DNA from: Escherichia phage D2
Sequence record: OM475427
DNA length: 49,197 nucleotides
Strand: one strand, 5' to 3'
Part shown: positions 2,542-49,197 of the stretch, piece after piece
Layout: the number at the start of each line of letters is the position of its first letter
Numbering within the stretch: the stretch's first letter is position 1
Translations under genes and position numbers: made by a program
Notes under the pieces: model-generated
Databases searched by the model: none
What the model saw: only the letters and a program-made list of their open reading frames with translations
What the model was told of the DNA's origin: nothing

Positions 2542-4127
2542 AACGAACGCCTGTCCTGATTGATGTGAACGGCGTTCCGCTTCGTGAGAGTCTCAGCTAC
2601 AACGGGGGCGGTGCAGGATTTGGCGGGCAAATGGCTGAGTGGTTGCCACCGGCGCAGAGTGCCGATGCGGCCCTGCTGCCCGCGTTGCGTCTGGGGAATG
2701 CCCGGGCAGATGATCTGGTGCGCAATAACGGAATAGCGGCTAATGCGGTGGCTCTGCATAAGGATCACATTGTCGGGCATATGTTTCTGATCAGCTACCG
2801 TCCGAACTGGCGCTGGCTGGGGATGCGGGAGACCGCAGCAAAAAGCTTTGTCGATGAGGTGGAGGCGGCCTGGTCGGAATACGCCGAAGGGATGTTTGGC
2901 GAGATCGACGTGGAAGGAAAACGCACGTTCACGGAATTTATCCGTGAAGGTGTGGGCGTTCATGCGTTTAACGGCGAAATCTTTGTGCAGCCGGTCTGGG
3001 ATACGGAAACCACGCAGTTATTCCGTACGCGTTTTAAAGCCGTGAGTCCGAAACGGGTGGACACGCCTGGACACGGTATGGGGAACCCTTTTCTGCGGGC
3101 CGGTGTGGAGGTCGATCGATATGGCCGTGCCGTCGCGTACCATATCTGTGAGGATGATTTTCCGTTCTCTGGTAGTGGACGATGGGAACGGATCCCGCGT
3201 GAACTTCCCACCGGGCGTCCGGCCATGTTGCATATTTTCGAGCCGGTGGAGGACGGGCAGACCCGTGGGGCTAATCAGTTTTACAGCGTCATGGAACGGC
3301 TGAAGATGCTCGATTCCCTGCAGGCAACACAGCTTCAGTCGGCCATAGTGAAGGCGATGTATGCAGCGACGATTGAAAGTGAACTTGATACCGAAAAGGC
3401 CTTTGAATATATCGCCGGCGCGCCACAGGAGCAGAAGGATAATCCGCTTATTAATATTCTGGAGAAGTTTTCCAGCTGGTATGACACGAATAACGTGACA
3501 CTGGGCGGTGTCAAAATTCCGCACCTTTTCCCTGGTGATGATCTGAAACTACAGACTGCGCAGGATTCAGACAATGGATTTTCTGCGCTTGAACAGGCGC
3601 TGCTGCGGTATATCGCCGCCGGTCTTGGCGTTTCCTACGAACAGTTGTCCCGTGATTACTCGAAGGTCAGTTACTCAAGTGCCCGCGCCTCCGCCAATGA
3701 GTCGTGGCGCTATTTTATGGGGCGGCGAAAATTTATTGCGGCCCGGCTGGCCACGCAGATGTTTTCCTGCTGGCTGGAAGAGGCACTTCTTCGGGGGATT
3801 ATTCGTCCGCCACGGGCACGTTTTGATTTTTATCAGGCGCGATCAGCCTGGTCACGGGCAGAGTGGATTGGTGCCGGAAGAATGGCCATTGACGGGCTCA
3901 AGGAAGTCCAGGAATCAGTGATGCGCATTGAAGCCGGACTGAGTACCTACGAGAAAGAGTGCGCAAAACGCGGTGACGACTATCAGGAAATTTTTGTCCA
4001 GCAGGTCCGTGAAACGATGGAGCGCCGTGCAGCCGGTCTTAAACCGCCCGCCTGGGCGGCTGCAGCATTTGAATCCGGGCTGCGACAATCAACAGAGGAG
4101 GAGAAGAGTGACAGCAGAGCTGCGTAA
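2538..4127 (+). CDS. B: Portal protein B
   Basis: MKRTPVLIDVNGVPLRESLSYNGGGAGFGGQMAEWLPP... essentially lambda gpB; start taken at the MKRTP methionine inside ORF 2508-4127. Confidence 0.9.
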   Translation: MKRTPVLIDVNGVPLRESLSYNGGGAGFGGQMAEWLPPAQSADAALLPALRLGNARADDLVRNNGIAANAVALHKDHIVGHMFLISYRPNWRWLGMRETAAKSFVDEVEAAWSEYAEGMFGEIDVEGKRTFTEFIREGVGVHAFNGEIFVQPVWDTETTQLFRTRFKAVSPKRVDTPGHGMGNPFLRAGVEVDRYGRAVAYHICEDDFPFSGSGRWERIPRELPTGRPAMLHIFEPVEDGQTRGANQFYSVMERLKMLDSLQATQLQSAIVKAMYAATIESELDTEKAFEYIAGAPQEQKDNPLINILEKFSSWYDTNNVTLGGVKIPHLFPGDDLKLQTAQDSDNGFSALEQALLRYIAAGLGVSYEQLSRDYSKVSYSSARASANESWRYFMGRRKFIAARLATQMFSCWLEEALLRGIIRPPRARFDFYQARSAWSRAEWIGAGRMAIDGLKEVQESVMRIEAGLSTYEKECAKRGDDYQEIFVQQVRETMERRAAGLKPPAWAAAAFESGLRQSTEEEKSDSRAA

Positions 4128-5625
4128 TCTCCCGCATATTGCCAGCATGGCCTTTAATGAGCCGCTGATGCTTGAACCCGCCTATGCGCGGGTTTTCTTT
4201 TGTGCGCTTGCAGGCCAGCTTGGGATCAGCAGCCTGACGGATGCGGTGTCCGGCGACAGCCTGACTGCCCAGGAGGCACTCGCGACGCTGGCATTATCCG
4301 GTGATGATGACGGACCACGACAGGCCCGCAGTTATCAGGTCATGAACGGCATCGCCGTGCTGCCGGTGTCCGGCACGCTGGTCAGCCGGACGCGGGCGCT
4401 GCAGCCGTACTCGGGGATGACCGGTTACAACGGCATTGTCGCCTGTCTTCAGCAGGCAATGGCGGATAGCCAGGTGCGGGGCGTACTGCTGGACATTGAC
4501 AGTCCGGGCGGGCAGGCCGCCGGCGCGTTTGACTGCGCTGACATGATTTACCGCCTCCGTCAGCAGAAGCCGGTCTGGGCACTGTGCAATGACACGGCCT
4601 GTTCTGCAGCCATGCTGCTGGCGTCGGCCTGCTCCCGACGGCTGGTTACCCAGACATCCCGTATCGGTTCCATTGGCGTGATGATGAGCCATGTCAGCTA
4701 TGCCGGTCATCTGGCGCAGGCCGGTGTGGATATCACGCTGATTTACTCAGGGGCGCACAAGGTGGATGGCAATCAGTTTGAAGCGTTGCCGGCAGAGGTT
4801 CGCCAGGACATGCAGCAGCGGATTGATGCGGCGCGCCGGATGTTTGCCGAAAAAGTGGCGATGTTTACCGGTCTGTCTGTTGATGCAGTCACAGGAACAG
4901 AGGCCGCTGTTTTTGAAGGTCAGTCCGGCATTGAGGCCGGGCTGGCGGATGAATTAATCAATGCGTCGGATGCCATCAGTGTGATGGCCACGGCGCTGAA
5001 CAGTAATGTCAGAGGAGGCACTATGCCGCAATTAACTGCAACGGAAGCCGCCGCGCAGGAGAACCAGCGAGTGATGGGGATCCTGACATGCCAGGAAGCG
5101 AAAGGACGTGAACAGCTTGCCACGATGCTGGCAGGACAACAGGGCATGAGCGTTGAACAGGCCCGGGCGATTCTGGCCGCGGCGGCACCGCAGCAGCCGG
5201 TGGCATCCACGCAGAGTGAAGCCGATCGCATTATGGCGTGTGAAGAAGCGAACGGTCGTGAACAACTGGCGGCAACGCTGGCGGCGATGCCGGAGATGAC
5301 GGTGGAAAAAGCCCGCCCGATCCTGGCTGCTTCACCGCAGGCGGATGCCGGACCATCACTCCGTGATCAGATCATGGCACTGGATGAGGCAAAAGGGGCT
5401 GAGGTGCAGGCTGAACAGCTGGCTGCCTGCCCGGGAATGACTGTGGAGTGCGCCCGGGCTGTGCTGGCTGCGGGATCAGGTAAGGCAGAACCGGTCTCTG
5501 CATCCACAACCGCCATGTTTGAACATTTCATGGCGAACCATTCACCGGCAGCGGTACAGGGTGGCGTGCCACAGACGTCAGCAGACGGTGATGCGGACGT
5601 GAAAATGCTCATGGCCATGCCATGA
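4108..5625 (+). CDS. C: Head protease/scaffold C (with nested Nu3-like scaffold region), C-terminal part expanded
   Basis: GTG start reading MTAELRNLPHIASMAFNEPLMLEPAYARVFF... as in lambda C (in frame with ORF 3973-5625). C-terminal region holds three diverged copies of the scaffold-like segment that lambda has once. Confidence 0.8.
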   Translation: MTAELRNLPHIASMAFNEPLMLEPAYARVFFCALAGQLGISSLTDAVSGDSLTAQEALATLALSGDDDGPRQARSYQVMNGIAVLPVSGTLVSRTRALQPYSGMTGYNGIVACLQQAMADSQVRGVLLDIDSPGGQAAGAFDCADMIYRLRQQKPVWALCNDTACSAAMLLASACSRRLVTQTSRIGSIGVMMSHVSYAGHLAQAGVDITLIYSGAHKVDGNQFEALPAEVRQDMQQRIDAARRMFAEKVAMFTGLSVDAVTGTEAAVFEGQSGIEAGLADELINASDAISVMATALNSNVRGGTMPQLTATEAAAQENQRVMGILTCQEAKGREQLATMLAGQQGMSVEQARAILAAAAPQQPVASTQSEADRIMACEEANGREQLAATLAAMPEMTVEKARPILAASPQADAGPSLRDQIMALDEAKGAEVQAEQLAACPGMTVECARAVLAAGSGKAEPVSASTTAMFEHFMANHSPAAVQGGVPQTSADGDADVKMLMAMP

Positions 5626-21677: not shown

Positions 21678-23277
21678 ATGAGTCAGAAATACCTCATTCG
21701 CATCGCAGAGCTGGAAAGGTTGCTCTCTGAGCAGGCTGAAGCCCTCCGTCAGAAAGACCAGCAACTGAGTCTGGTTGAAGAGACGGAAGCCTTCCTGCGC
21801 TCTGCACTGACACGTGCCGAAGAAAAGATCGAAGAAGATGAACGGGAAATAGAACATCTGCGGGCTCAGATAGAAAAACTGCGCCGGATGCTGTTCGGTA
21901 CCCGTTCTGAAAAACTGCGTCGTGAAGTTGAACTGGCTGAGGCTCTGCTGAAACAACGTGAACAGGACAGCGATCGTTACAGTGGGCGGGAAGACGATCC
22001 TCAGGTTCCCCGCCAGTTGCGACAGTCGCGCCATCGTCGTCCGTTACCGGCACACCTTCCCCGTGAAATACACCGCCTGGAGCCAGAAGAAAGCTGTTGC
22101 CCGGAGTGTGGCGGTGAGCTGGATTATCTGGGGGAAGTCAGCGCTGAACAGCTGGAACTGGTGAGCAGTGCCCTGAAAGTGATCCGCACAGAACGGGTAA
22201 AAAAAGCCTGTACAAAATGTGACTGTATTGTTGAAGCACCGGCGCCGTCCCGCCCGATAGAGCGTGGTATCGCGGGCCCCGGATTACTTGCCCGCGTGTT
22301 AACGGGAAAATACTGCGAACATCTGCCACTGTATCGTCAGAGTGAAATCTTTGCCCGCCAGGGTGTCGAACTGAGCCGGGCCTTACTCTCCAACTGGGTT
22401 GACGCGTGCTGCCAGTTAATGACACCGGTGAATGATGCCCTGTACCGTTATGTAATGAATACCCGCAAGGTTCACACTGATGACACACCGGTAAAGGTAC
22501 TGGCACCGGGTCAGAAAAAGGCGAAAACAGGGCGTATCTGGACGTATGTCCGGGATGATCGCAATGTGGGTTCGTCATCTCCTCCAGCGGTCTGGTTCGC
22601 GTACTCGCCGAACCGGCAGGGGAAACACCCGGAGCAACACCTCCGCCCCTTCCGGGGTATCCTGCAGGCGGATGCGTTCACAGGTTACGACAGGTTGTTC
22701 AGTGCAGAACGTGAAGGTGGTGCACTGACAGAAGTTGCGTGCTGGGCCCATGCCCGGCGAAAAATCCACGATGTATACATCAGCAGCAAAAGTGCGACGG
22801 CAGAAGAAGCCCTGAAGCGAATCAGTGAACTGTACGCCATCGAGGATGAAATACGGGGATTACCGGAGTCAGAGCGTCTTGCGGTCAGGCAGAAGAAGAG
22901 CAAACTGTTACTGGACTCACTGCATGCATGCATGGTGGAGAAAAATGCCACGCTATCCAAAAATCCAGACTGGGAGAATGGTTCAGCTGTGTACTGAATC
23001 AGTGGGGCGCACTCTGTTATTACAGTGTTGACGGTCAGGCGGAGGCAGACATAATGCCGCGGAAAAAGCCCTTTGTGCCATCTGTCTCGGAAATAAAAAC
23101 TTTATGTTCTTCGGCGGCGAGCGCAGTGCACTGTTGTATGGGCTTATCGGCACTTGCCTTCTGAACGNNATNGATCCGGAAGCGTATCTGCGCCATATNC
23201 TGAGCATACTGCCGGAATGGCCCTCCAACCGTGTTGACGAACTCCTGCCATGGAACGTAGTTCTCACCAATAAATAA
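21678..23277 (+). pseudogene. tnpC: IS66 family transposase TnpC, interrupted by two frameshifts
   Basis: Frame 0 ORF 21678-22997 (439 aa, coiled-coil N-terminus, zinc-finger CPECG), continues in another frame (KSRLGEWFSCVLNQWGALCYYSVDGQAEAD) and then a third (NAAEKAL..FMFFGGERSALLYGLIGTCLLN..YLRH.LSILPEWPSNRVDELLPWNVVLTNK*). The shifts at ~22955 and ~23045 are not at n positions. Confidence 0.7.
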
Positions 23278-23442
23278 GCGTCAATACGGTGCTCCGTTGA
23301 CGCTTACTTTAATCCGTTTTCTGAGCTTAGATTTTTCTGTTCCTACCCAGACCGTGGATTTGGAATTCATTTTTTGTCAGGTCAATGCTAATCGTTAAAA
23401 CGGCCATAACGCACCTCCACTGGAAGGTTTATCAGAGGTCGT

Positions 23443-24027: not shown

Positions 24028-24119
24028 AAAAAGGTGANCTGNANATNGCAACGGAGGAAGAAACCNCGTTGCTGGAAGCCNGGAANAAGTATCGGGTGTT
24101 GCTGNNCTCGGATGTTGTG

Positions 24120-24977
24120 CTAATTGGGTGATAACAGATCCTGTGTATGGGAGTTTCCCTTTTTGCGTGCGTTGATGCTGGTAACGGCAAACGTCATGAT
24201 GAACAAAACCGCGAATAAGACGACAATCGTCGGAGCTGGTGCGCTGTCGATAAAAAAGGACAACCAGACACCAGTCATTGACACTATTACCGATATGCCA
24301 GTCGCCAGTAGGAGCGCAATATGAAAGCGTTGTGTCAGGAGTACCGCAATGGCGCCAGGCGCAATGAGCAGAGAAATGGAGAGAATGATACCTACCGCTT
24401 TCAGCGTCGCCACAATGGTCAGAGAGACCATGCACAGCAGCCCATAATGCAGCCATCTCGTATGCAAACCGCTTACCTGCGCCTGTTGATAATCAAAGCT
24501 GAACAGCAAAAAATCCCGCCATTTTACGCTAATAACAAGTGTAACCAGCCCGGCAATAANCATCGTCTGGATTATATCGCCGATGGTTATCCCGAGCATG
24601 TCGCCGAANAGAATATGGTCAAGATGTNCGTCTGGTTTGACTGCAATATACAAGATCAGANCTGCGGCAAACATGCCAGANAANACNATCCCCATCACTG
24701 TATCTTGCTTGATTCGGCTGTTGTCTTTCAGGTATCCCGTCGCCACCGCGCAGAATACTCCGGCGACGAATGCCCCTGTAGCCAAAGGTAACCCCAGAAT
24801 CCAGGCAAGCACGATGCCAGGAAAAACCGCATGACTCATCGCGTCACCCATCAGTGCCCAACCTTTCAGGACCAGAAAGACCGACAGCAGCGCACAGGGT
24901 ATGGAAACTACCAGTGAAATCAGCAGTGCGTGACTCATAAAGGTGAACTGCAGTGGCTCCAGTAATAATGCCATCAT
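24120..24977 (-). CDS. sitD: Mn/Fe ABC transporter permease SitD (contains ambiguous bases)
   Basis: 285-aa polytopic membrane protein, paralogous to the upstream permease; several n/X positions. Confidence 0.85.
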   Translation of the reverse strand: MMALLLEPLQFTFMSHALLISLVVSIPCALLSVFLVLKGWALMGDAMSHAVFPGIVLAWILGLPLATGAFVAGVFCAVATGYLKDNSRIKQDTVMGXXXSGMFAAXLILYIAVKPDXHLDHIXFGDMLGITIGDIIQTMXIAGLVTLVISVKWRDFLLFSFDYQQAQVSGLHTRWLHYGLLCMVSLTIVATLKAVGIILSISLLIAPGAIAVLLTQRFHIALLLATGISVIVSMTGVWLSFFIDSAPAPTIVVLFAVLFIMTFAVTSINARKKGNSHTQDLLSPN

Positions 24978-25831
24978 GAGCGATCCTCCAGCGCCTTATG
25001 CGCACGCCGACGATTTGCCAAAAGCCCATGGGTGGGCGCAAAGACAAATGCTAAAAGAAACAGCAGTGTCTGCGCCACCACGATGATTCCACCTGTCGCG
25101 CCGTCCAGAAAGTAACTGACCCACGCGCCGAGGAAACTGGTTACACTGCCAATAGTTACAGCAATCATGAGCAGGCGGGGAAAACGATCGGTTAACAACC
25201 ATGCTGTTGCACCGGGAGTCACCACCAGACAGATCACCAGAAAGGCACCAACCGTTTGCAGCGCCGCAACGGTCGAAACCGACAGCAGGGTGAAGAAGAG
25301 GAGTTTTAATCTGCCCGGATGCAATCCAATAGCACGGGCGTGATTCTCGTCGAAAAAGGTCACCATAAGATCTTTCCATTTGAAAAAAAGCACGATGATC
25401 GAGAGAATGCCAATGATAGTGAGTTGCAGGATATCCGCCGGATCGATTGCCAGAATATTGCCCAGGACGATGGTCTGAATGTTCACAGATGTCGGGTTCA
25501 ATGACACCATAAACAGCCCCAGGCCAAAAAAGGACGAGAAGATCAGACCGATGATGGCATCTTCTTTTAAGCGGGTGCGTTGGTTAAGAAACAGCATGCT
25601 GCCCGCAGCCAGTCCGCCGGAAAAGAAGGCTCCCAGAGAAAACGGAAGCCCCAGCATATATGCCCCCGCAACACCCGGGACAATAGAGTGCGACAACGCA
25701 TCGCCAATCAGCGACCAGCCTTTTAGCATCAGATAGCATGACAGGAAAGCGCAGAGACCGCCGACCATCGCCGAGACCCACATCGCATTGAGCATATATT
25801 CATAGCTGAAGGGTTCCAGTAGCACGTTCAT
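24974..25831 (-). CDS. sitC: Mn/Fe ABC transporter permease SitC
   Basis: 285 aa, ABC-3 family permease; 4-nt overlaps with sitB and sitD. Confidence 0.9.
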
Positions 25832-26655
25832 CTTTCTTCCCTCTGCACCGCTGACGGTCGATGAGCCACAAAAGGGCGTTCATCGTCAGTAATAATGCTT
25901 TCTTCCGAGCCGTTAAGTGTGACATGGCGCAGTACGCCGCTAAAAGCCAGCTCTAGGTTCTCGGCTGTAAAAGTGGTGTCTGTCGGCCCGCTTGCCAGGA
26001 CGGTGCCTTTGACCATGACCGTATAATCGCAAAATGTCGTGACGGATCCGAGATTGTGTGTTGAGACAAGCATCGTTTTGCCTTCCGCGCGTAACTCCCT
26101 CAACAGGCTGATGATTTTGGCTTCGGTTTTCACATCAACGCCAGTAAAAGGTTCATCCAGCAGGATCACATCACCCTGCTGTGCAATCGCTCTCGCCAGA
26201 AAGACGCGTTTCTTTTGTCCACCGGAAAGCTCGCCGATTTGTCGATGGCGAAAATTCACCATATCGACACGTTCCAGCGCATCGGTGACAATTTGACGAT
26301 CCCTCTTTTTGGCGATACGCAACATACCCATATGCCCATAGCGGCCCATCATCACCACATCTTCCACCAGTACAGGAAATGACCAGTCAACCTCTTCTGA
26401 CTGAGGGACGTAGGCAACCAGGTTTTTCTGTAACGCCTGTCGCGTGGGAATACCCAGAACAGATATCTTTCCGCTGGTCAGACGCACAAATCCCATAATC
26501 GCTTTAAACAACGTCGATTTTCCGGAACCGTTTACCCCAACCAGAGCGGCAATAGATCCACTTGGTACTGTGAAGGATGCATCGCGCAGTGCTGTGTGCC
26601 CGTTATGCCAGGTGACAGCAACATCATTAACGACAATGCCTGCAGATTGCATCAT
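25828..26655 (-). CDS. sitB: Mn/Fe ABC transporter ATP-binding protein SitB
   Basis: Walker [13 protein letters not shown] signature LSGGQKKR, Walker B ILLDEP. Confidence 0.9.
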
Positions 26656-27569
26656 TATTTCTCCCTTTTCCCGGCTTTAATTCCCTGTACCAGCGTACTG
26701 GTAGTAACCTTAAGAAGGTCGATATACGTCGGTACCGGGCCGTTTTCTGTGCTCAGGGAATCGACATAGAGCACACCGCCGTAGTGTGCGCCGGTTTCAC
26801 GCGCAACCTGACGCGCTGGTTTATCGGAAATCGTACTCTCGCTAAAGACTGCCGGGATATGATTTTTCTTAACTATATCAACAACCTTACGTACCTGCTG
26901 CGGTGTTCCTTGTTGATCGGCATTAATCGGCCACAGATAAAGCTCTTTTAGCCCCAAATCGCGTGCGAGATAAGAAAAAGCCCCTTCACTGGTGACCATC
27001 CATCGCTGATTCTCAGGGAGTTCCGTAATCTGCTTACGCAGGGGGGCAAGGGTTTGGGTAATCTTGGCTTTATAAGTATCGGCATTGCGTTGGTAGGTTT
27101 GTGCATTTGCCGGATCGTATTTTATCAACGCATCACGAATATTATCGACGTAAATCAGAGCATTATCTGGCGACATCCATGCATGGGGGTTAGGTTTGCC
27201 CTCATAGGGTCCTTCGGTGATCCCTACAGGCGTCACACCCGAAGAGACAATTACTTCTGGAACCCCATTGAGATGCTGGTAAAAGCGTTGGAACCACAAT
27301 TCCAGATTCATACCATTGGCGAGAATCAGTTGTGCCCCCTGCGCACGTTTAATATCGCCAGGGGTAGGCTGATACTCATGAATTTCTGCACCAGGCTTGG
27401 TTATGGATGAGACTTCTGCAGCATCTCCCGCCACGTTTTTGGCCATATCCGCGATGATGGTAAATGTTGTAATGACCTTAAATTTTTCAGTTGCACTTGC
27501 CTGAAATGCGATCGAGCAGGTGAGTGCGAGGCCCCCCAAGAGCATGGTTACTTTTTTTATTGAGCGCAT
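26655..27569 (-). CDS. sitA: Periplasmic Mn/Fe-binding protein SitA
   Basis: 304 aa with signal peptide; cluster-9 metal-binding protein, first gene of a sitABCD-type operon. Confidence 0.9.
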
Positions 27570-27601
27570 AATTTAGTACCTATAGTGAGCAAAATTAGAA
27601 C

Positions 27602-28002: not shown

Positions 28003-28366
28003 AAATTATATCAAGTACGAACAAACTTAGTGACAAAAGACTACGAAAAATATAAAACAATTTTAGTATTAAGTAGAGAGAAATTTCGTTCTGCTAGGAC
28101 GCAGCAATAGGTTCATGAGATTCTCTGATACTTGTTACCTTAGTAAGCCTTAAATTTTTAAAAATTCTTTTACGTCCACTCCTCGCTCATAACAGGCATT
28201 AACTACATTTATCTTCATTGGCTATGCAAGTCGTAATAAAAGGTGGGACAAAACTGAGACACATAAGCTCTCACAAAGGTCTGCAAGGCCTCACATGTAT
28301 TGAGATGTTAATAAAATGTAGACTTGTAATTTTGATATAAATGGTAGATAAAACCTTTCCCCACCC

Positions 28367-28647
28367 CTGGTGCAAACATCGGTGACGAATGCGCCCTGTT
28401 TGAAGCCACCCACGGTACTGCGCCGAAATATGCCGGTCAGGACAAAGTAAATCCTGGCTCTATTATTCTCTCCGCTGAGATGATGCTGCGCCATATGGGT
28501 TGGACTGAAGCGGCTGACCTGATTGTTAAAGGTATGGAAGGCGCAATCAATGCCAAGACCGTAACTTATGACTTCGAACGTCTGATGGAAGGCGCTAAGC
28601 TGCTGAAATGTTNCGAGTTTGGCGACGCGATCATCAAGAACATGTAA
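28367..28647 (+). pseudogene. icd: 3' fragment of icd (isocitrate dehydrogenase), last ~93 codons, at the phage attachment site
   Basis: Translation [92 protein letters not shown] matches the Icd C-terminus; upstream sequence is unrelated to icd. Confidence 0.85.
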
Positions 28648-28698: not shown

Positions 28699-28753
28699 AT
28701 GATGATGTAAAATCTTCCCCAAAACTTTCCCCAAAACNNNNNNTGGCTATTTT

Positions 28754-33484: not shown

Positions 33485-33549
33485 TCTTTGGGACTCCTGG
33501 CTGATTANNTNTNNNNAANGNGTTTCCATCCGTCACGTAATTTACGCAT
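33451..33549 (-). CDS. cIII: cIII-like protein (N-terminally different from lambda; interrupted by n bases; boundaries approximate)
   Basis: Minus-strand ATG preceded by AGGAG, reading MRKLRDGWK..., matching the lambda cIII core (ITRKLRDGWKRLIDILNQ). An n run (33508-33521) interrupts the reading. Confidence 0.45.
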
Positions 33550-39198: not shown

Positions 39199-39537
39199 AT
39201 GAAAAAACTAACCTTTGAAATTCGATCTCCAGCACATCAGCAAAACGCTATTCACGCAGTACAGCAAATCCTTCCAGACCCAACCAAACCATTATGGCCA
39301 TCTGTTGGTACAATTATTTGTTATTGTGCATCATTCTGGTTATTAGCTCAGACGCTGGCTTATATACCTACAGGGATTGCTTATGCTATCTGGTCAGGAG
39401 TCGGTATTGTCCTGATTAGCTTACTATCATGGGGATTTTTCGGCCAACGGTTGGACCTGCCAGCCATTATAGGCATGATGTTGATTTGTGCCGGTGTGTT
39501 GGTTATTAATTTATTGTCACGAAGCACACCACATTAA
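39199..39537 (+). pseudogene. In-frame fusion of ninB 5' end (32 codons) to emrE 3' end (about 80 codons)
   Basis: MKKLTFEIRSPAHQQNAIHAVQQILPDPTKP (lambda NinB N-terminus) joined to WPSVGTIICYCASFWLLAQTLAYIPTGIAYAIWSGVGIVLISLLSWGFFGQRLDLPAIIGMMLICAGVLVINLLSRSTPH (EmrE from about residue 31); lacks EmrE TM1. Confidence 0.7.
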
Positions 39538-39792
39538 AAATAATTTATTTTTAAACGACTAAAATATGGAGGTTCGTATATTTGTATGGGCCTCGTTTTA
39601 TGCTTTTTGTTAATGTCTTTAGTTTTTATTCATTCTTTTGATCTTTCAAGACCATGGTGTAAGAAAATTGCAATACGATTATTGTTGTATATTCAAGATA
39701 ATGTGACCTTAATTGTCTTTTTAAATAAAAATTAAACAAAAATCATATCTCACCACTAAGGTTTATAAAAGCATACTTTAGCAGGTGTCACC

Positions 39793-43785: not shown

Positions 43786-44068
43786 TTTGAGAAAAGCAGC
43801 GCGTGGTCGGGAATGCCAGGTAAGAATCCCTGGCGTATGTAATGGCAATCCTGAAACGTCAGTACTGGCACATATCCGGCTGGCTGGATTGTGCTGTACC
43901 GGTATCAAACCGCCAGACCTGATTGCCACCATTGCATGTTCTGCCTGCCACGACGAAATCGACCGTCGCACGCATTTTGTTGACGCTGGATATGCAAAAG
44001 AATGCGCGCTGGAAGGTATGGCGAGAACACAGGTTATCTGGCTGAAAGAGGGGGTAATTAAGGCGTGA
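43778..44068 (+). CDS. ybcO: YbcO-like protein (DUF1364, putative nuclease)
   Basis: 96 aa from ATG preceded by AGGAGG; cysteine-rich ([20 protein letters not shown]). Confidence 0.7.
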
Positions 44069-44427
44069 ATACTTACCACATCACACTACCCTGGCCGCCG
44101 AGCAATAATCGCTATTACCGCCATAATCGCGGACGCACGCATATCAGCGCAGAGGGGCAGGCATACCGCGATAATGTCGCCCGAATCATTAAAAACGCAA
44201 TGCTGGATATCGGCCTGGCTATTCCTGTGAAAATCAGCATTGAGTGCCACATGCCGGATCGCCGTCGCCGTGACCTTGATAATCTGCAAAAGGCCGCTTT
44301 TGACGCACTCACCAAAGCAGGTTTCTGGCTGGATGATGCTCAGGTCGTTGATTACCGCGTTGTGAAGATGCCCGTTACCAAAGGTGGGAAGCTGGAGCTG
44401 ACTATCACTGAACTGGGAGATGAATGA
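44065..44427 (+). CDS. rusA: Holliday junction resolvase RusA
   Basis: 120 aa, [38 protein letters not shown]... matches RusA. Confidence 0.9.
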
Positions 44428-45221: not shown

Positions 45222-46304
45222 TTAGAACTGATAAACCAGACCTACAGCGACGATGTCGTCGGTATCAATACCAGCTGTTTTGGTAAACTTACTATCGTCA
45301 ATTAAGTTGATTTTGTAATCAACAAAAGTGGACATGTTTTTATTAAAGTAGTAAGTAGCACCGACATCGACATACTTGACTAAGTCTCGGTCACCATGAA
45401 CACCAAGGTCTTTACCTTTTGACTGAAGGTAAGCAACAGATGGTCGCAGACCGAAGTCAAACTGATATTGTGCTACTGCTTCAAAGTTTTGTGCTTTGTT
45501 TGCAATATGGTTATTACCAAAAACGGTCATATTCTGAGTTTCAGAATATGTGGTAGCCAGATAGATATTGTTCGCATCATATTTCAGGCCTGCAGCCCAT
45601 ACTTCCGCATTTTTGCCGGAGGCATTGAATTTGCTCTTACCATAGGCGACCTGACCGTCAGTGCGATCTGATTTAGCATAGGTTGCACCCACGCCGAATC
45701 CTTCATACTCATAAGTAGTGGAGAAACCGAAACCATCACCATTGACTTCAGTTACGTCAGTGCGGTCATTTTTACCCTGATACTGAGCAGCAAAGTTCAG
45801 GCCATCGACCAGACCAAAGAAGTCGTTGTTACGATAAGTTGCAACACCAGTAGTGCGACCAGTCATGAACACATCTGTTTGGGTCCAGGTATCACCACCG
45901 AATTCTGGCAGGACGTCAGTCCACGCACCGATGTCGTATGCTACACCGTAGTTACGGCCGTAATCGATTGAGCCGTAATCACCAAATTTCAGGCCTGCAA
46001 ATGCAAGACGGGTTTTGTCTTTGGAAGAACCTTGAGATTCAGCACGGTTGCCTTTGAATTCATATTCCCACTGACCGAAACCAGTCAGTTGATCGTTGAT
46101 TTGGGTTTCACCTTTGAAGCCAAGACGGGCATAAGTAGTATCACCATCATCTGCATCATTAGAGGAGAAGTAGTGCTTGGCATTAACTTTCCCGTATAGA
46201 TCCAGCTTGTTACTGTCTTTATTATAAATTTCAGCTGCCTGAGCAGACATCGCCATCAGTACTGATGCAGCTACAGCAGAAATTGCCACTGTTAATTTTT
46301 TCAT
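45222..46304 (-). CDS. nmpC: Outer membrane general porin (NmpC/OmpD/OmpC family), apparently intact
   Basis: 360 aa; signal peptide ending AQA; mature N-terminus AEIYNKD..KLDLYGK; C-terminal VGLVYQF with terminal Phe. Confidence 0.85.
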
Positions 46305-46893
46305 TGTACGCCCTTTTTTTTGAACTATTATTAAAAAATGATGTCACTGCGCGATAAATATTCATCTAATCAATGCGATTATTTCAAGATGTAAGTTTTA
46401 GTTTCTCATTTAATTTGTGAAGTAGATCTCTATTTTTATCTGAACCTTTTCTATCTAATCCTATTCATGGCTCTTGTTTGAACGAAAATAAATCTATTAG
46501 CTAATTTATATTAATGGCACTTATTTATAAGCGCTCTATAATTCTTTAGCTTAATTTAAACAAACTAAAAATAACATCGGAAATTATTCATTGGTTATTT
46601 GTTGAAGTTTTCTTATGTATTTGTGGTGGTGTTTTGAACACTCGGTGGCATTCTCACAAATATCATTTAGTAGTTTACGTACGTAAAAAATTGGTTATGC
46701 TGTTAAGAGTGGTTACTTCGTCACACAGCTTAAACCCGCCGTCGAGCGGGTTTTTCCATTTTTTGAGTCTCGATATTAGCTGATAACCCAATACCTGAGT
46801 TATTCACTGACTCCGAATCTGTTACGTTTCTGCCTTTATTGCGATACGTAGTATCCCCTTAATTTACACCCGCTTTGTCTGCGAGGTGGGGTT

Positions 46894-47109
46894 ATGAAAT
46901 CCATGGATAAGTTAACAACGGGTGTCGCCTATGGCACCTCAGCAGGTAGTGCCGGGTACTGGTTTTTACAGTTGCTCGATAAAGTCACTCCGTCACAGTG
47001 GGCTGCAATCGGTGTGCTGGGTAGCCTGGTTTTTGGCCTGCTGACGTATCTGACAAATCTTTATTTCAAGATTAAAGAAGACAGGCGTAAGGCTGCGAGA
47101 GGAGAGTAA
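46894..47109 (+). CDS. essD: Pinholin (S21-type class II holin) with dual-start motif
   Basis: 71 aa, [26 protein letters not shown]..., two TMDs; Met1-Lys-Ser-Met4 dual start as in phage 21 S21. Confidence 0.85.
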
Positions 47110-47113
47110 TCCA

Positions 47114-47606
47114 ATGACTCAAGACTATGAACTGGTTGTGAAAGGAGTCCGGTGGGGCTGTTGCCATAGCGTCTGTGCTCATCACTGGTCCGAGTGGTGA
47201 CGATGGCCTGGAAGGTGTCAGCTACATACCATACAAAGATATCGTTGGCGTATGGACTGTATGTCACGGACACACCGGAAAAGACATCATGCTCGGTAAA
47301 ACGTATACCGAAGCAGAATGCAAAGCCCTCCTGAATAAAGACCTTGCCACTGTCGCCAGACAAATTAACCCGTACATCAAAGTCGATATACCGGAAACAA
47401 CGCGCGGCGCTCTTTGCAGCAGATTAAGGAGCGTGGCGCTTTANCNNNNNNTNNATCGTGGTGATATCCGTCAGGCAATCGACCGTTGCAGCAATATCTG
47501 GGCTTCACTGCCGGGCGCTGGTTATGGTCAGTTCGAGCATAAGGCTGACAGCCTGATTGCAAAATTCAAAGAAGCGGGCGGAACGGTCAGAGAGATTGAT
47601 GTATGA
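47114..47606 (+). pseudogene. R: Endolysin, chimeric: P21-type lysozyme 5' part joined out of frame to lambda R transglycosylase 3' part
   Basis: Frame 0 (47175-~47405) encodes SAR-lysozyme-like [79 protein letters not shown]. From ~47411 another frame reads [10 protein letters not shown]; after an n run, [49 protein letters not shown] (lambda R C-terminus). The 5' ATG at 47114 is in yet another frame. Confidence 0.6.
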
Positions 47607-48046
47607 GCAGAGTCACCGCGATTATCTCCGCTCTGGTTATCTGCATCATCGTCTGCCTGTCATGGGCTGTTAATCATTACCGTGATAACGCCATTACCTA
47701 CAAAGCCCAGCGCGACAAAAATGCCAGAGAACTGAAGCTGGCGAACGCGGCAATTACTGACATGCAGATGCGTCAGCGTGATGTTGCTGCGCTCGATGCA
47801 AAATACACGAAGGAGTTAGCTGATGCTAAAGCTGAAAATGATGCTCTGCGTGANNNNNTTNCCGCTGGTCGTCGTCGGTTGCACATCAAAGCAGTCACCG
47901 CCGCCTCCGGCGTGGATGATGGTGCCAGCCCCAGACTTACTGACACCGCTCAACGGGATTATTTCGTTCTCAGAGAGCGCATCGAAACCGTAACTAACCA
48001 ATTGAATGGTCTGCAAGAGTATGTGAGATCACAGTGTTCATATTAG
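47603..48046 (+). CDS. Rz: Spanin inner-membrane subunit Rz (i-spanin)
   Basis: [83 protein letters not shown]... matches lambda Rz; n run at 47845-47852. Confidence 0.85.
47823..47993 (+). CDS. Rz1: Spanin outer-membrane lipoprotein Rz1 (o-spanin), embedded in Rz in the +1 frame
   Basis: Embedded [13 protein letters not shown]...[43 protein letters not shown]: lipobox (VVGC) and proline-rich mature region. Confidence 0.7.
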
Positions 48047-48084
48047 AAAAGTCTTATCATAAGATTTTTGTATATGGATGCATT

Positions 48085-48459
48085 ATGTCTCAATACGCTC
48101 AAGCCGCTTTAAATGCTTATCAATTGGTTGCTCATAACTCAATGTCTCCTCGTGATGCATGGGAGGCTGCTGTCGCTGAGGTTACAGAAAGCGAATCGGC
48201 AAGAAAGAAGGGATGCCCAAGGGCAACGTTTCTCGCTCTGGCGGATAGCGGTTATCTGAAGAATGTAAAACAACATCATGGGGAGAAAAAGATCGGTAAG
48301 TTGTACCAAAGGGCAATTGAAGTTGCGAATCTGATTCTTGATTTACCCGGAATTAGCAAAGCTGAGCTAGTTGATAAAACTTGCTATAAAGACAGGCAAG
48401 GGTCTTATGACATTGCTCTAACTCTCGCTCAGCACGGATTACTCCAGCGTCCTCAATAA
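48085..48459 (+). CDS. Hypothetical protein (124 aa) between Rz and cos
   Basis: ORF starting MSQYAQAALNAYQLVAHNSMSPRDAWEAAVAEV...; no family recognised. Confidence 0.35.
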   Translation: MSQYAQAALNAYQLVAHNSMSPRDAWEAAVAEVTESESARKKGCPRATFLALADSGYLKNVKQHHGEKKIGKLYQRAIEVANLILDLPGISKAELVDKTCYKDRQGSYDIALTLAQHGLLQRPQ

Positions 48460-48557
48460 GATATTAAGTGATTTATGGCCTCGCTTTTAGCGGGGCTTTT
48501 TCATATCTGAATCTCACCATGCATATCATCACCTGACTGGAACGTCAGGAGAATTCG

Positions 48558-48794
48558 TTACCGGGATTCGATAAAGGTATTCAAGCCTGACACATTATGC
48601 GCTGTATCGTCGCCGTATTCCTGCATTAACCATGACCGTAGCCCGACGGGGAATTCCTTCTGCGCGAGTGTGCGGGCGTATTCAGTGNNNNGATTTGTAT
48701 TGTCTGAAGTTGTTTTTACGTTAAGTTGATGCAGATCAATTAATACGATACCTGCGTCATAATTGATTATTTGACGTGGTTTGATGGCCTCCAC
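48558..48794 (-). CDS. Hypothetical protein (78 aa, contains ambiguous bases)
   Basis: Minus-strand ORF between Rz and cos; n positions inside; no family recognised. Confidence 0.2.
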   Translation of the reverse strand: MEAIKPRQIINYDAGIVLIDLHQLNVKTTSDNTNXXTEYARTLAQKEFPVGLRSWLMQEYGDDTAHNVSGLNTFIESR

Positions 48795-48864
48795 GCACGT
48801 TGTGATATGTAGATGATAATCATTATCACTTTACGGGTCCTTTCCGGTGATCCGACAGGTTACG

Positions 48865-48876
48865 GGGCGGCGACCT
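48865..48876 (+). other. cos: cosN cohesive-end site (lambda type), with flanking cosQ/cosB
   Basis: ...GATCCGACAGGTTACG|GGGCGGCGACCT|CGCGGGTTTTCGCTATTTATGAAAATTTTCCGGTTTAAGGCGTTTCCG... matches the lambda right-end/left-end junction with the 12-nt cohesive sequence GGGCGGCGACCT. Confidence 0.85.
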
Positions 48877-49053
48877 CGCGGGTTTTCGCTATTTATGAAA
48901 ATTTTCCGGTTTAAGGCGTTTCCGTTCTTCTTCGTCATAACTTAATGTTTTTATTTAAAATACCCTCTGAAAAGAAAGGAAACGACAGGTGCTGAAAGCG
49001 AGCTTTTTGGCCTCTGTCGTTTCCTTTCTCTGTTTTTGTCCGTGGAATGAACA

Positions 49054-49197
49054 ATGGAAGTCAACAAAAAGCAGCTGGCTGACATTTTCGGTGCGAGTAT
49101 CCGTACCATTCAGAACTGGCAGGAACAGGGAATGCCCGTTCTGCGAGGCGGTGGCAAGGGTAATGAGGTGCTTTATGACTCTGCCGCCGTCATAAAA
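49054..49197 (+). CDS. nu1: Terminase small subunit Nu1 (lambda type), 3'-truncated by window end
   Basis: MEVNKKQLADIFGASIRTIQNWQEQGMPVLRGGGKGNEVLYDSAAVIK matches the lambda Nu1 N-terminus, about 190 bp downstream of cosN. Confidence 0.9.
   Translation, partial: MEVNKKQLADIFGASIRTIQNWQEQGMPVLRGGGKGNEVLYDSAAVIK

Follow-up and report, generated by a model that had tools for sequence, protein, structure and literature searches.

A three-source composite endolysin gene in the Escherichia phage D2 record, probably an artefact of reference-guided consensus

Lambdoid phages are mosaic and recombine with defective prophages, and a recombinant is not absurd a priori. Natural lambda hybrids with defective prophages include, for example, the qsr'/p4 substitutions from DLP12, and phage recombinases reportedly promote exchange with such prophages. 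The two endolysins that concern us here are both intact and of a single family in their parents: the R protein of phage 4A7 has 165 aa and a full PF00959 (Phage_lysozyme) domain, and lambda R has 158 aa and is identical to 1AM7. A preliminary description of the locus spoke of unrelated enzyme folds. The 4A7-type endolysin showed no significant sequence similarity to lambda R (BLASTP E=2.2) and lambda R has no PF00959 match, but as regards the folds themselves the wording is too strong: the two are reportedly related, that of lambda lysozyme (PDB 1AM7) being lysozyme-type and akin to the V- and C-type lysozymes.

The window analysed here is the whole 49,197-nt stretch of Escherichia phage D2 (record OM475427). 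The phage records closest to its positions 46850-48100 are those of the Bievrevirus group 4A7, 4C10, 1W and 3W, all of which carry an intact 498-nt endolysin there. We compared the whole window with 4A7 (NC_049946/LR595864) and with lambda, and the lysis region was aligned with 4A7 without gaps. A composite, frame-broken endolysin gene is indeed present, at 47109-47606. It is made of three source parts rather than two, in the order Qin essQ stop with ydfR codons 1-12, 4A7 R codons 15-102 and lambda R codons 96-158. The features of the region are as follows.

46894-47109, plus strand: S21-type pinholin ORF of 71 aa, intact (PF04971, E=1e-35)
46987-47151, plus strand: Qin patch of 162-165 nt, 100% identical to the E. 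coli K-12 Qin prophage
47114-47200, plus strand: spurious 28-aa ORF that opens with the ydfR start codon and then runs out of frame into the endolysin
47151-47415, plus strand: R21/RrrD-type SAR lysozyme part, codons 15-102 and the first base of codon 103, 100% identical to 4A7
47175-47606, plus strand: longest ORF of the endolysin region, 143 aa, from an internal GTG start
47414-47443, plus strand: lambda R codons L96-L105, one base left of the Rz-anchored register and in the +2 frame relative to the 4A7 part
47444-47454, plus strand: N-run NCNNNNNNTNN, 11 positions against 10 in lambda, a clash of two lambda registers
47455-47606, plus strand: lambda R codons D109-V158 and stop, in the Rz-anchored register and the 4A7 gene frame
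47603-48046, plus strand: Rz spanin ORF of 147 aa (PF03245 match), lambda-type to about 47885 and 4A7-type from 47900
47615-47694, plus strand: anchor at the Rz start, 80 nt identical in lambda and 4A7, from which lambda sequence spreads
47854-47861, plus strand: second lysis-cassette N-run, 160-167 nt rightward of the Rz anchor

The P21-type SAR lysozyme region with an E..D..T arrangement that had been recognised earlier corresponds to the 4A7 R part at 47151-47415. It keeps the catalytic triad E-x8-D-x5-T (E35 at 47211-47213, D44 and T50 in 4A7 numbering), and the structures nearest to it are 4zpu (RrrD) and 3hde (R21). In Pfam searches this part covered only positions 3-71 of the 125 in PF00959, against 3-125 for 4A7 R, and the composite does not contain a full-length Phage_lysozyme domain. 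It has no start codon, SAR residues 1-14 being replaced by Qin sequence, and the frame from 47109 meets stops at codons 3 and 11. A start codon and a SAR domain in one continuous ORF are therefore not found in the composite. The 28-aa ORF gave a weak DUF1327 match over residues 1-13 in a Pfam profile search. K-12 DLP12 was considered as the source of the P21-like part and rejected: 45297-47415 is 87.6% identical to DLP12, and the endolysin part is 100% identical to 4A7.

The assignment of the 3′ end to the C-terminus of lambda R was likewise correct. Positions 47414-47606 are identical, Ns excepted, to lambda R codons 96-158 and stop, and belong to a block (47414-47896) consisting of the lambda R 3′ end and the Rz 5′ part, which is identical to lambda except at Ns and counts 483 bases in the window against 482 in lambda. 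A lambda R transglycosylase has an N-terminal catalytic region and a C-terminal lobe in one chain, and here there are codons 96-158 only. The parts differ in frame and the frame shifts again within the run of Ns, as had been noted: the first lambda codons, in which the lambda coordinate is window - 1636, are in the +2 frame, and 11 positions in place of 10 then restore the gene frame. Beyond the run the lambda part lies in the 4A7 frame because the lambda and 4A7 endolysin genes end on the same TGA overlapping the Rz ATG. The join had been placed near a short shared sequence encoding RGAL. Two RGAL-coding stretches do exist, in tandem at 47403-47414 and 47432-47443, but the switch from 4A7 to lambda comes after the first of them and not inside shared sequence, and only 'TT' is shared there. 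A crossover inside the motif was rejected, both copies being kept 27 nt apart.

The N-run itself extends over 47444-47454, not 47444-47456 as first given, and contains 9 Ns with called bases at 47445 (C) and 47452 (T). When lambda was overlaid on itself with a one-base shift, 11 of 11 positions were reproduced, including both called bases; this fit to a register clash led us to reject the view that the run stands for unknown or low-coverage sequence. The extra position divides the lambda R part between two frames, and it is because the run carries this spurious eleventh position that the composite endolysin is 498 nt long, exactly as in 4A7. The same model accounted for four of four positions at 48688-48691 and 12 of 14 at 33508-33521, with registers 1 nt and 2 nt apart. 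At all three sites ambiguity codes thus come from conflicting alignments, as is predicted for an artefact. The window contains 58 Ns in 14 clusters, three of which are in the lysis region (47444-47454, 47854-47861 and 48688-48691), and N-runs sit 143-174 nt from the homology cores.

At the 5′ end of the gene a frame shift had been ascribed to a G-run near 47150. A homopolymer slip at 47150 was rejected, since the 40 nt upstream are ydfR and not shifted endolysin; what lies there instead is a third junction, at the end of the Qin patch. This patch contains the essQ 3′ end, the stop, a 4-nt spacer and the first 38 nt of ydfR. Identity to Qin is 99.4% over the 172 nt of 46980-47151, one flanking base included, and 100% within 46987-47151. 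A three-way comparison showed that the holin ORF changes at about 46987 from 4A7-type in its 5′ part to Qin essQ-type in its 3′ part; the protein differs from 4A7 S only by K64R, which is the essQ residue. The patch covers the end of the 4A7 holin and the start of the endolysin in register: although its last 40 nt are not homologous to 4A7, the 4A7 offset (+20) is the same on either side. It has about the size of one or two reads and overrides 4A7 bases without ambiguity codes, and 4A7-type reads were therefore absent or rare there. No DLP12-type patches were seen in the window, though K-12 DLP12 is 95% identical to 4A7 over about 4 kb, which points to a sequenced host that was probably not K-12, or else had very thin coverage.

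On the other side of the gene, lambda sequence extends from the Rz anchor 199 nt leftward, which takes it 187 nt beyond the Rz start and into R, and 191 nt rightward. Where Rz switches back to 4A7, seven codons are absent (CQSVREA in lambda, CPDMHKT in 4A7), their Cys included. Another seven codons, present in lambda Rz and absent from 4A7, form columns 40-46, upstream of the switch. Rz has the 4A7 length of 147 aa because the seven extra lambda codons are cancelled by the seven dropped at the switch. The embedded Rz1 frame (47823-47993) lacks the same 21 nt.

Outside 46989-47150, 47416-47614, 47695-47895 and 48677 onwards, the lysis region is collinear and identical with 4A7 (4A7 coordinate = window + 20). 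The lambda-type R-Rz block is followed by 4A7-type sequence at 47900-48676 and lambda-type sequence at 48677-49197; a DUF6979 ORF, cos and the lambda Nu1 start are the other features past Rz. Across all 49 kb the 4A7 offset ranges from -12 to +24, and it is exactly +20 in the lysis cassette. Base 1 of the window is base 1 of the 4A7 record, an arbitrary point in the middle of Nu1, and the 4A7 base is present at both sites where the near-identical 1W and 4C10 differ. The window therefore shares the coordinate system of the 4A7 record down to its arbitrary start base, as would be predicted for a consensus built on that record.

When the window was painted by source, eight lambda-identical blocks alternated with 4A7-identical ones, giving 15 switches, three of them in the lysis cassette, and not the single boundary between a DLP12/P21-like and a lambda-like region that had been proposed. 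Over about 27 kb, the 4A7-type blocks contain essentially no errors. All 4A7/lambda homology blocks of at least 86% identity are lambda-type (tail genes, stf, exo-bet-gam and O-P-ren), as are the 80-nt Rz start, cos and two long exact seeds in the terminase and portal genes. The homology cores are cleanly lambda, with 99.6-100% identity and no ambiguity codes. On both sides the lambda blocks run past these cores, by 157-248 nt with outliers of 94 and 318, into DNA that cannot be aligned, and the return to 4A7 at each block end stays in the 4A7 register. Such overshoot, centred on an anchor, of read scale and in register, is what an artefact predicts. Fourteen of the 15 switch points share 0-6 nt and the remaining one shares 14 nt, so that the crossovers within shared sequence that mark a natural mosaic are not seen. 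The position of the switches outside homology counts against homologous recombination, because such recombination puts junctions inside homology, and the kept register counts against illegitimate recombination, in which there is no reason for register to be kept.

The two ends of the window overlap in content: 49152-49197 (lambda Nu1, codons about 33-48) is a homeologous repeat of 1-46 (4A7 Nu1). Such a repeat would be expected from reads overhanging the end of a linear reference. If circularised, the window would carry about 15 Nu1 codons twice. Two lambda-identical islands, 594-1262 and 3932-4434, lie in the terminase and portal genes, in which identity between lambda and 4A7 is only about 66-69%; they hold the longest exact seeds nearby, of 20 and 17 nt in one and 26 nt in the other, and would yield chimeric terminase and portal proteins. 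The 4A7 scaffold also carries cargo genes, namely a sitABCD Mn/Fe transporter (24100-27600), an emrE-like SMR pump (39205-39540) and an NmpC/OmpD-type porin (45222-46304), all of which are annotated in the 4A7, 1W and 4C10 records.

Besides lambda, a host chromosome contributed foreign patches, among them the Qin patch, and some further stretches also depart from 4A7. The 120 nt at 28364-28483 are chromosomal E. coli icd, unlike both 4A7 and lambda, and abut the upstream side of the phage icd fragment by the integrase gene; host-type SNPs continue beyond the patch to 28684. Host icd sequence has overwritten phage sequence there. At 22883-23433, which comprises the 3′ end of an IS66-family transposase and the sequence that follows it, there are about 105 differences from 4A7 as well as Ns, and the best E. 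coli matches are ISEc23-like with about 90% identity; reads from other IS66 copies were probably blended here. In a ybcO-like nuclease gene, 44042-44086 shows seven substitutions relative to 4A7 in 45 nt, two of which match K-12 DLP12. A 6-N run with a 7-nt loss relative to 4A7 was found at 28725-28745, within a repeated CTTTCCCCAAAAC motif in the interval between the icd fragment and int (attP region), and is probably a repeat-induced alignment slip. A further cluster, at 24038-24106, has nine Ns, seven of which are at lambda/4A7 differences within a 58-nt homology to the lambda tfa 3′ end; the eighth differing site is called as 4A7, and the remaining two Ns are at the end of the homology. 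These Ns suggest mixed reads from lambda and from 4A7-like or host tail-fibre-assembly paralogues.

Independent genomes were searched for the junctions, whose 30-mers are CGCGGCGCTCTTTGCAGCAGATTAAGGAGC and GTGAAAGGAGTCCGGTGGGGCTGTTGCC. As an exact pattern, the R-junction 30-mer had no match in IMG/VR, in 185,579 GTDB species genomes or in JGI metagenomes, and a Qin/R-junction 28-mer had none in IMG/VR and the GTDB genomes. In BLAST searches of 50,697 phage records no match spanned the R junction, and the Qin/R junction was reproduced in none of 5,426 complete E. coli genomes. Parental sequences from the corresponding position served as positive controls and gave at least 120 and at least 98 matches in IMG/VR. 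A natural mosaic would be expected to show the same junction in independent genomes, and in these collections it did not. The proposal of a biological fusion is thus at odds with parental arrangements that are common and junctions that appear in none of the collections searched.

The composite endolysin is very probably an artefact of a reference-guided (map-to-reference) consensus, and that it is an assembly or consensus artefact of some kind appears nearly certain. The call follows from the geometry of the patches. As far as comparison of sequences can establish them, this geometry and the source of each patch are settled, as is the explanation of the N-run by a register clash. Every mark of an artefact that was looked for in the sequence was found, and the composite has the make-up neither of the two enzyme families nor of a natural mosaic; a biological interpretation is therefore rejected. 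The evidence on the patches favours a chimeric assembly over a lysis-defective prophage, the two outcomes suggested earlier.

In the mechanism we propose, the 4A7 record would have served as scaffold for a library dominated by lambda and containing some host DNA. Lambda reads, and fewer reads from the E. coli chromosome, would be recruited at shared sequence, and their non-homologous ends, not properly clipped, would be made to fit the scaffold coordinates; the 4A7 base would remain wherever there were no reads or minority reads only. Lambda reads anchored on the 80-nt Rz start would then put the final 190 nt of lambda R in place of the final 190 nt of the 4A7 endolysin, and host reads from a Qin-like essQ-ydfR locus, anchored in the holin, would overwrite the endolysin start. 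No DNA molecule with these joins would be required, the true templates being lambda R and a 4A7-type R, each intact, together with an ordinary essQ-ydfR. As to software, we infer a seed-and-iterate mapper working on reads of about 150 nt, with the 4A7 parts as reference fill and not low-coverage reads. Some observations fit one simple pipeline poorly. At 180-250 nt the overhangs are longer than one 150-nt read, and iterative or paired extension is therefore needed; a 20-nt exact seed at 4A7 3714 carries no lambda patch; and the Ns at 24038-24106 suggest that some 4A7-type or paralogous reads were present.

The sister records 1W, 3W and 4W were probably deposited with the study of Berryhill et al. 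2023 (PMC10089163), a link that rests on the record name E26-Berryhill. In that study Illumina NextSeq reads were 'analyzed using Geneious Prime'; it gives general methods only and mentions neither hybrids nor the record. Its bearing on the artefact is circumstantial.

The alternative that survives best, though we consider it unlikely, is a mixed-template consensus, in which a 4A7-like phage, lambda and host DNA were all in the library and the consensus flipped between them with local depth. The 4A7 parts would then be true reads and not fill, and the gene would still correspond to no real molecule. The Ns at seven of the eight lambda/4A7 differences in the 58-nt homology at 24038-24106 are in its favour, and the error-free 4A7 blocks (about 27 kb) suit true reads as well as they suit fill. 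A mixture is, however, hard to reconcile with homology cores that are cleanly lambda and free of ambiguity codes, and the read-sized Qin patch and the icd patch both override 4A7 without Ns, indicating that 4A7-type reads were absent or a small minority there. A start at the arbitrary first base of the reference would in any case still need a reference scaffold.

A true triple recombinant, in which a 4A7-like phage had gained lambda and Qin segments by illegitimate or microhomology exchange and become lysis-defective, is very improbable. All three sources do occur in E. coli, two nucleotides ('TT') overlap at the R junction, and lambdoid mosaicism and recombinase-driven exchange with defective prophages would provide a setting for it. 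Such a history would nevertheless have to produce 15 switches, nearly all without homology, about a read-length outside it and in the register of one parent. It would also have to produce an exact 21-nt compensation in Rz, a 498-nt gene length that hangs on a spurious extra N, and the homeologous Nu1 duplication at the ends, with junctions absent from all collections searched; and with no endolysin start codon and a broken R frame, the phage could not be propagated as a plaque-former. We give equally little credence to real junctions formed by template switching or microhomology copying that ran about 200 nt past homology tracts in register. If the junctions were real, the window would be a mosaic defective in lysis and would reveal a mode of exchange between phage and prophage that has not been described before. 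Least probable of all is a composite that is not a sequencing consensus but was constructed or edited, such as an alignment-derived consensus or an engineered construct: in-register block swaps and Ns at disagreeing columns would also fit a column-wise consensus of 4A7, lambda and host fragments, but the block ends track the homology cores at read-like distances of about 150-250 nt, and the N-runs reflect lambda against itself, not lambda against 4A7.

With the reference-guided consensus as the preferred explanation, the record is unfit as evidence for endolysin domain shuffling, for lysis-defective prophages or for recombination between lambda and Bievrevirus. Gene callers can be expected to report bogus products from it, namely a truncated lysozyme, a 28-aa ydfR-R fusion and an Rz without seven residues. 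Its value is for quality control only, as the signature can be reused to flag similar records: anchor-centred foreign blocks that overshoot by a read length, lengths equal to those of the reference, N-runs that are register clashes, and the arbitrary start base of the reference.

Compared with the phage 21 R/DLP12 RrrD SAR endolysin (GH24, PF00959; 3HDE, 3HDF and 4ZPU; intact in 4A7 as YP_009909487), the composite shares codons 15-102, with part of the SAR helix and the triad. It lacks the start and residues 1-14, for which it has ydfR, and residues 103-165, equivalent to profile positions 72-125, for which it has lambda R; nor does it form a continuous ORF. With the lambda R transglycosylase (1AM7, 3D3D) it has in common codons 96-105 and 109-158 and the stop overlapping the Rz start. 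Only the C-terminal 40% of that enzyme is kept, and the N-terminal part, which contains the catalytic Glu19, is absent. The K-12 Qin essQ-ydfR locus (DUF1327) is matched at 100% identity over 46987-47151, but the match includes only the first 38 nt of ydfR, the rest of which is nowhere in the window. Like natural lambdoid mosaics, the window alternates between lambdoid sources and has DLP12-like Q-nmpC-S-R-Rz beside lambda-like genes. In natural hybrids, however, the crossovers lie inside homology and the genes are intact, whereas here the switches lie 157-248 nt outside it (one at 94 and one at 318), in register with a database record, and the genes are broken.
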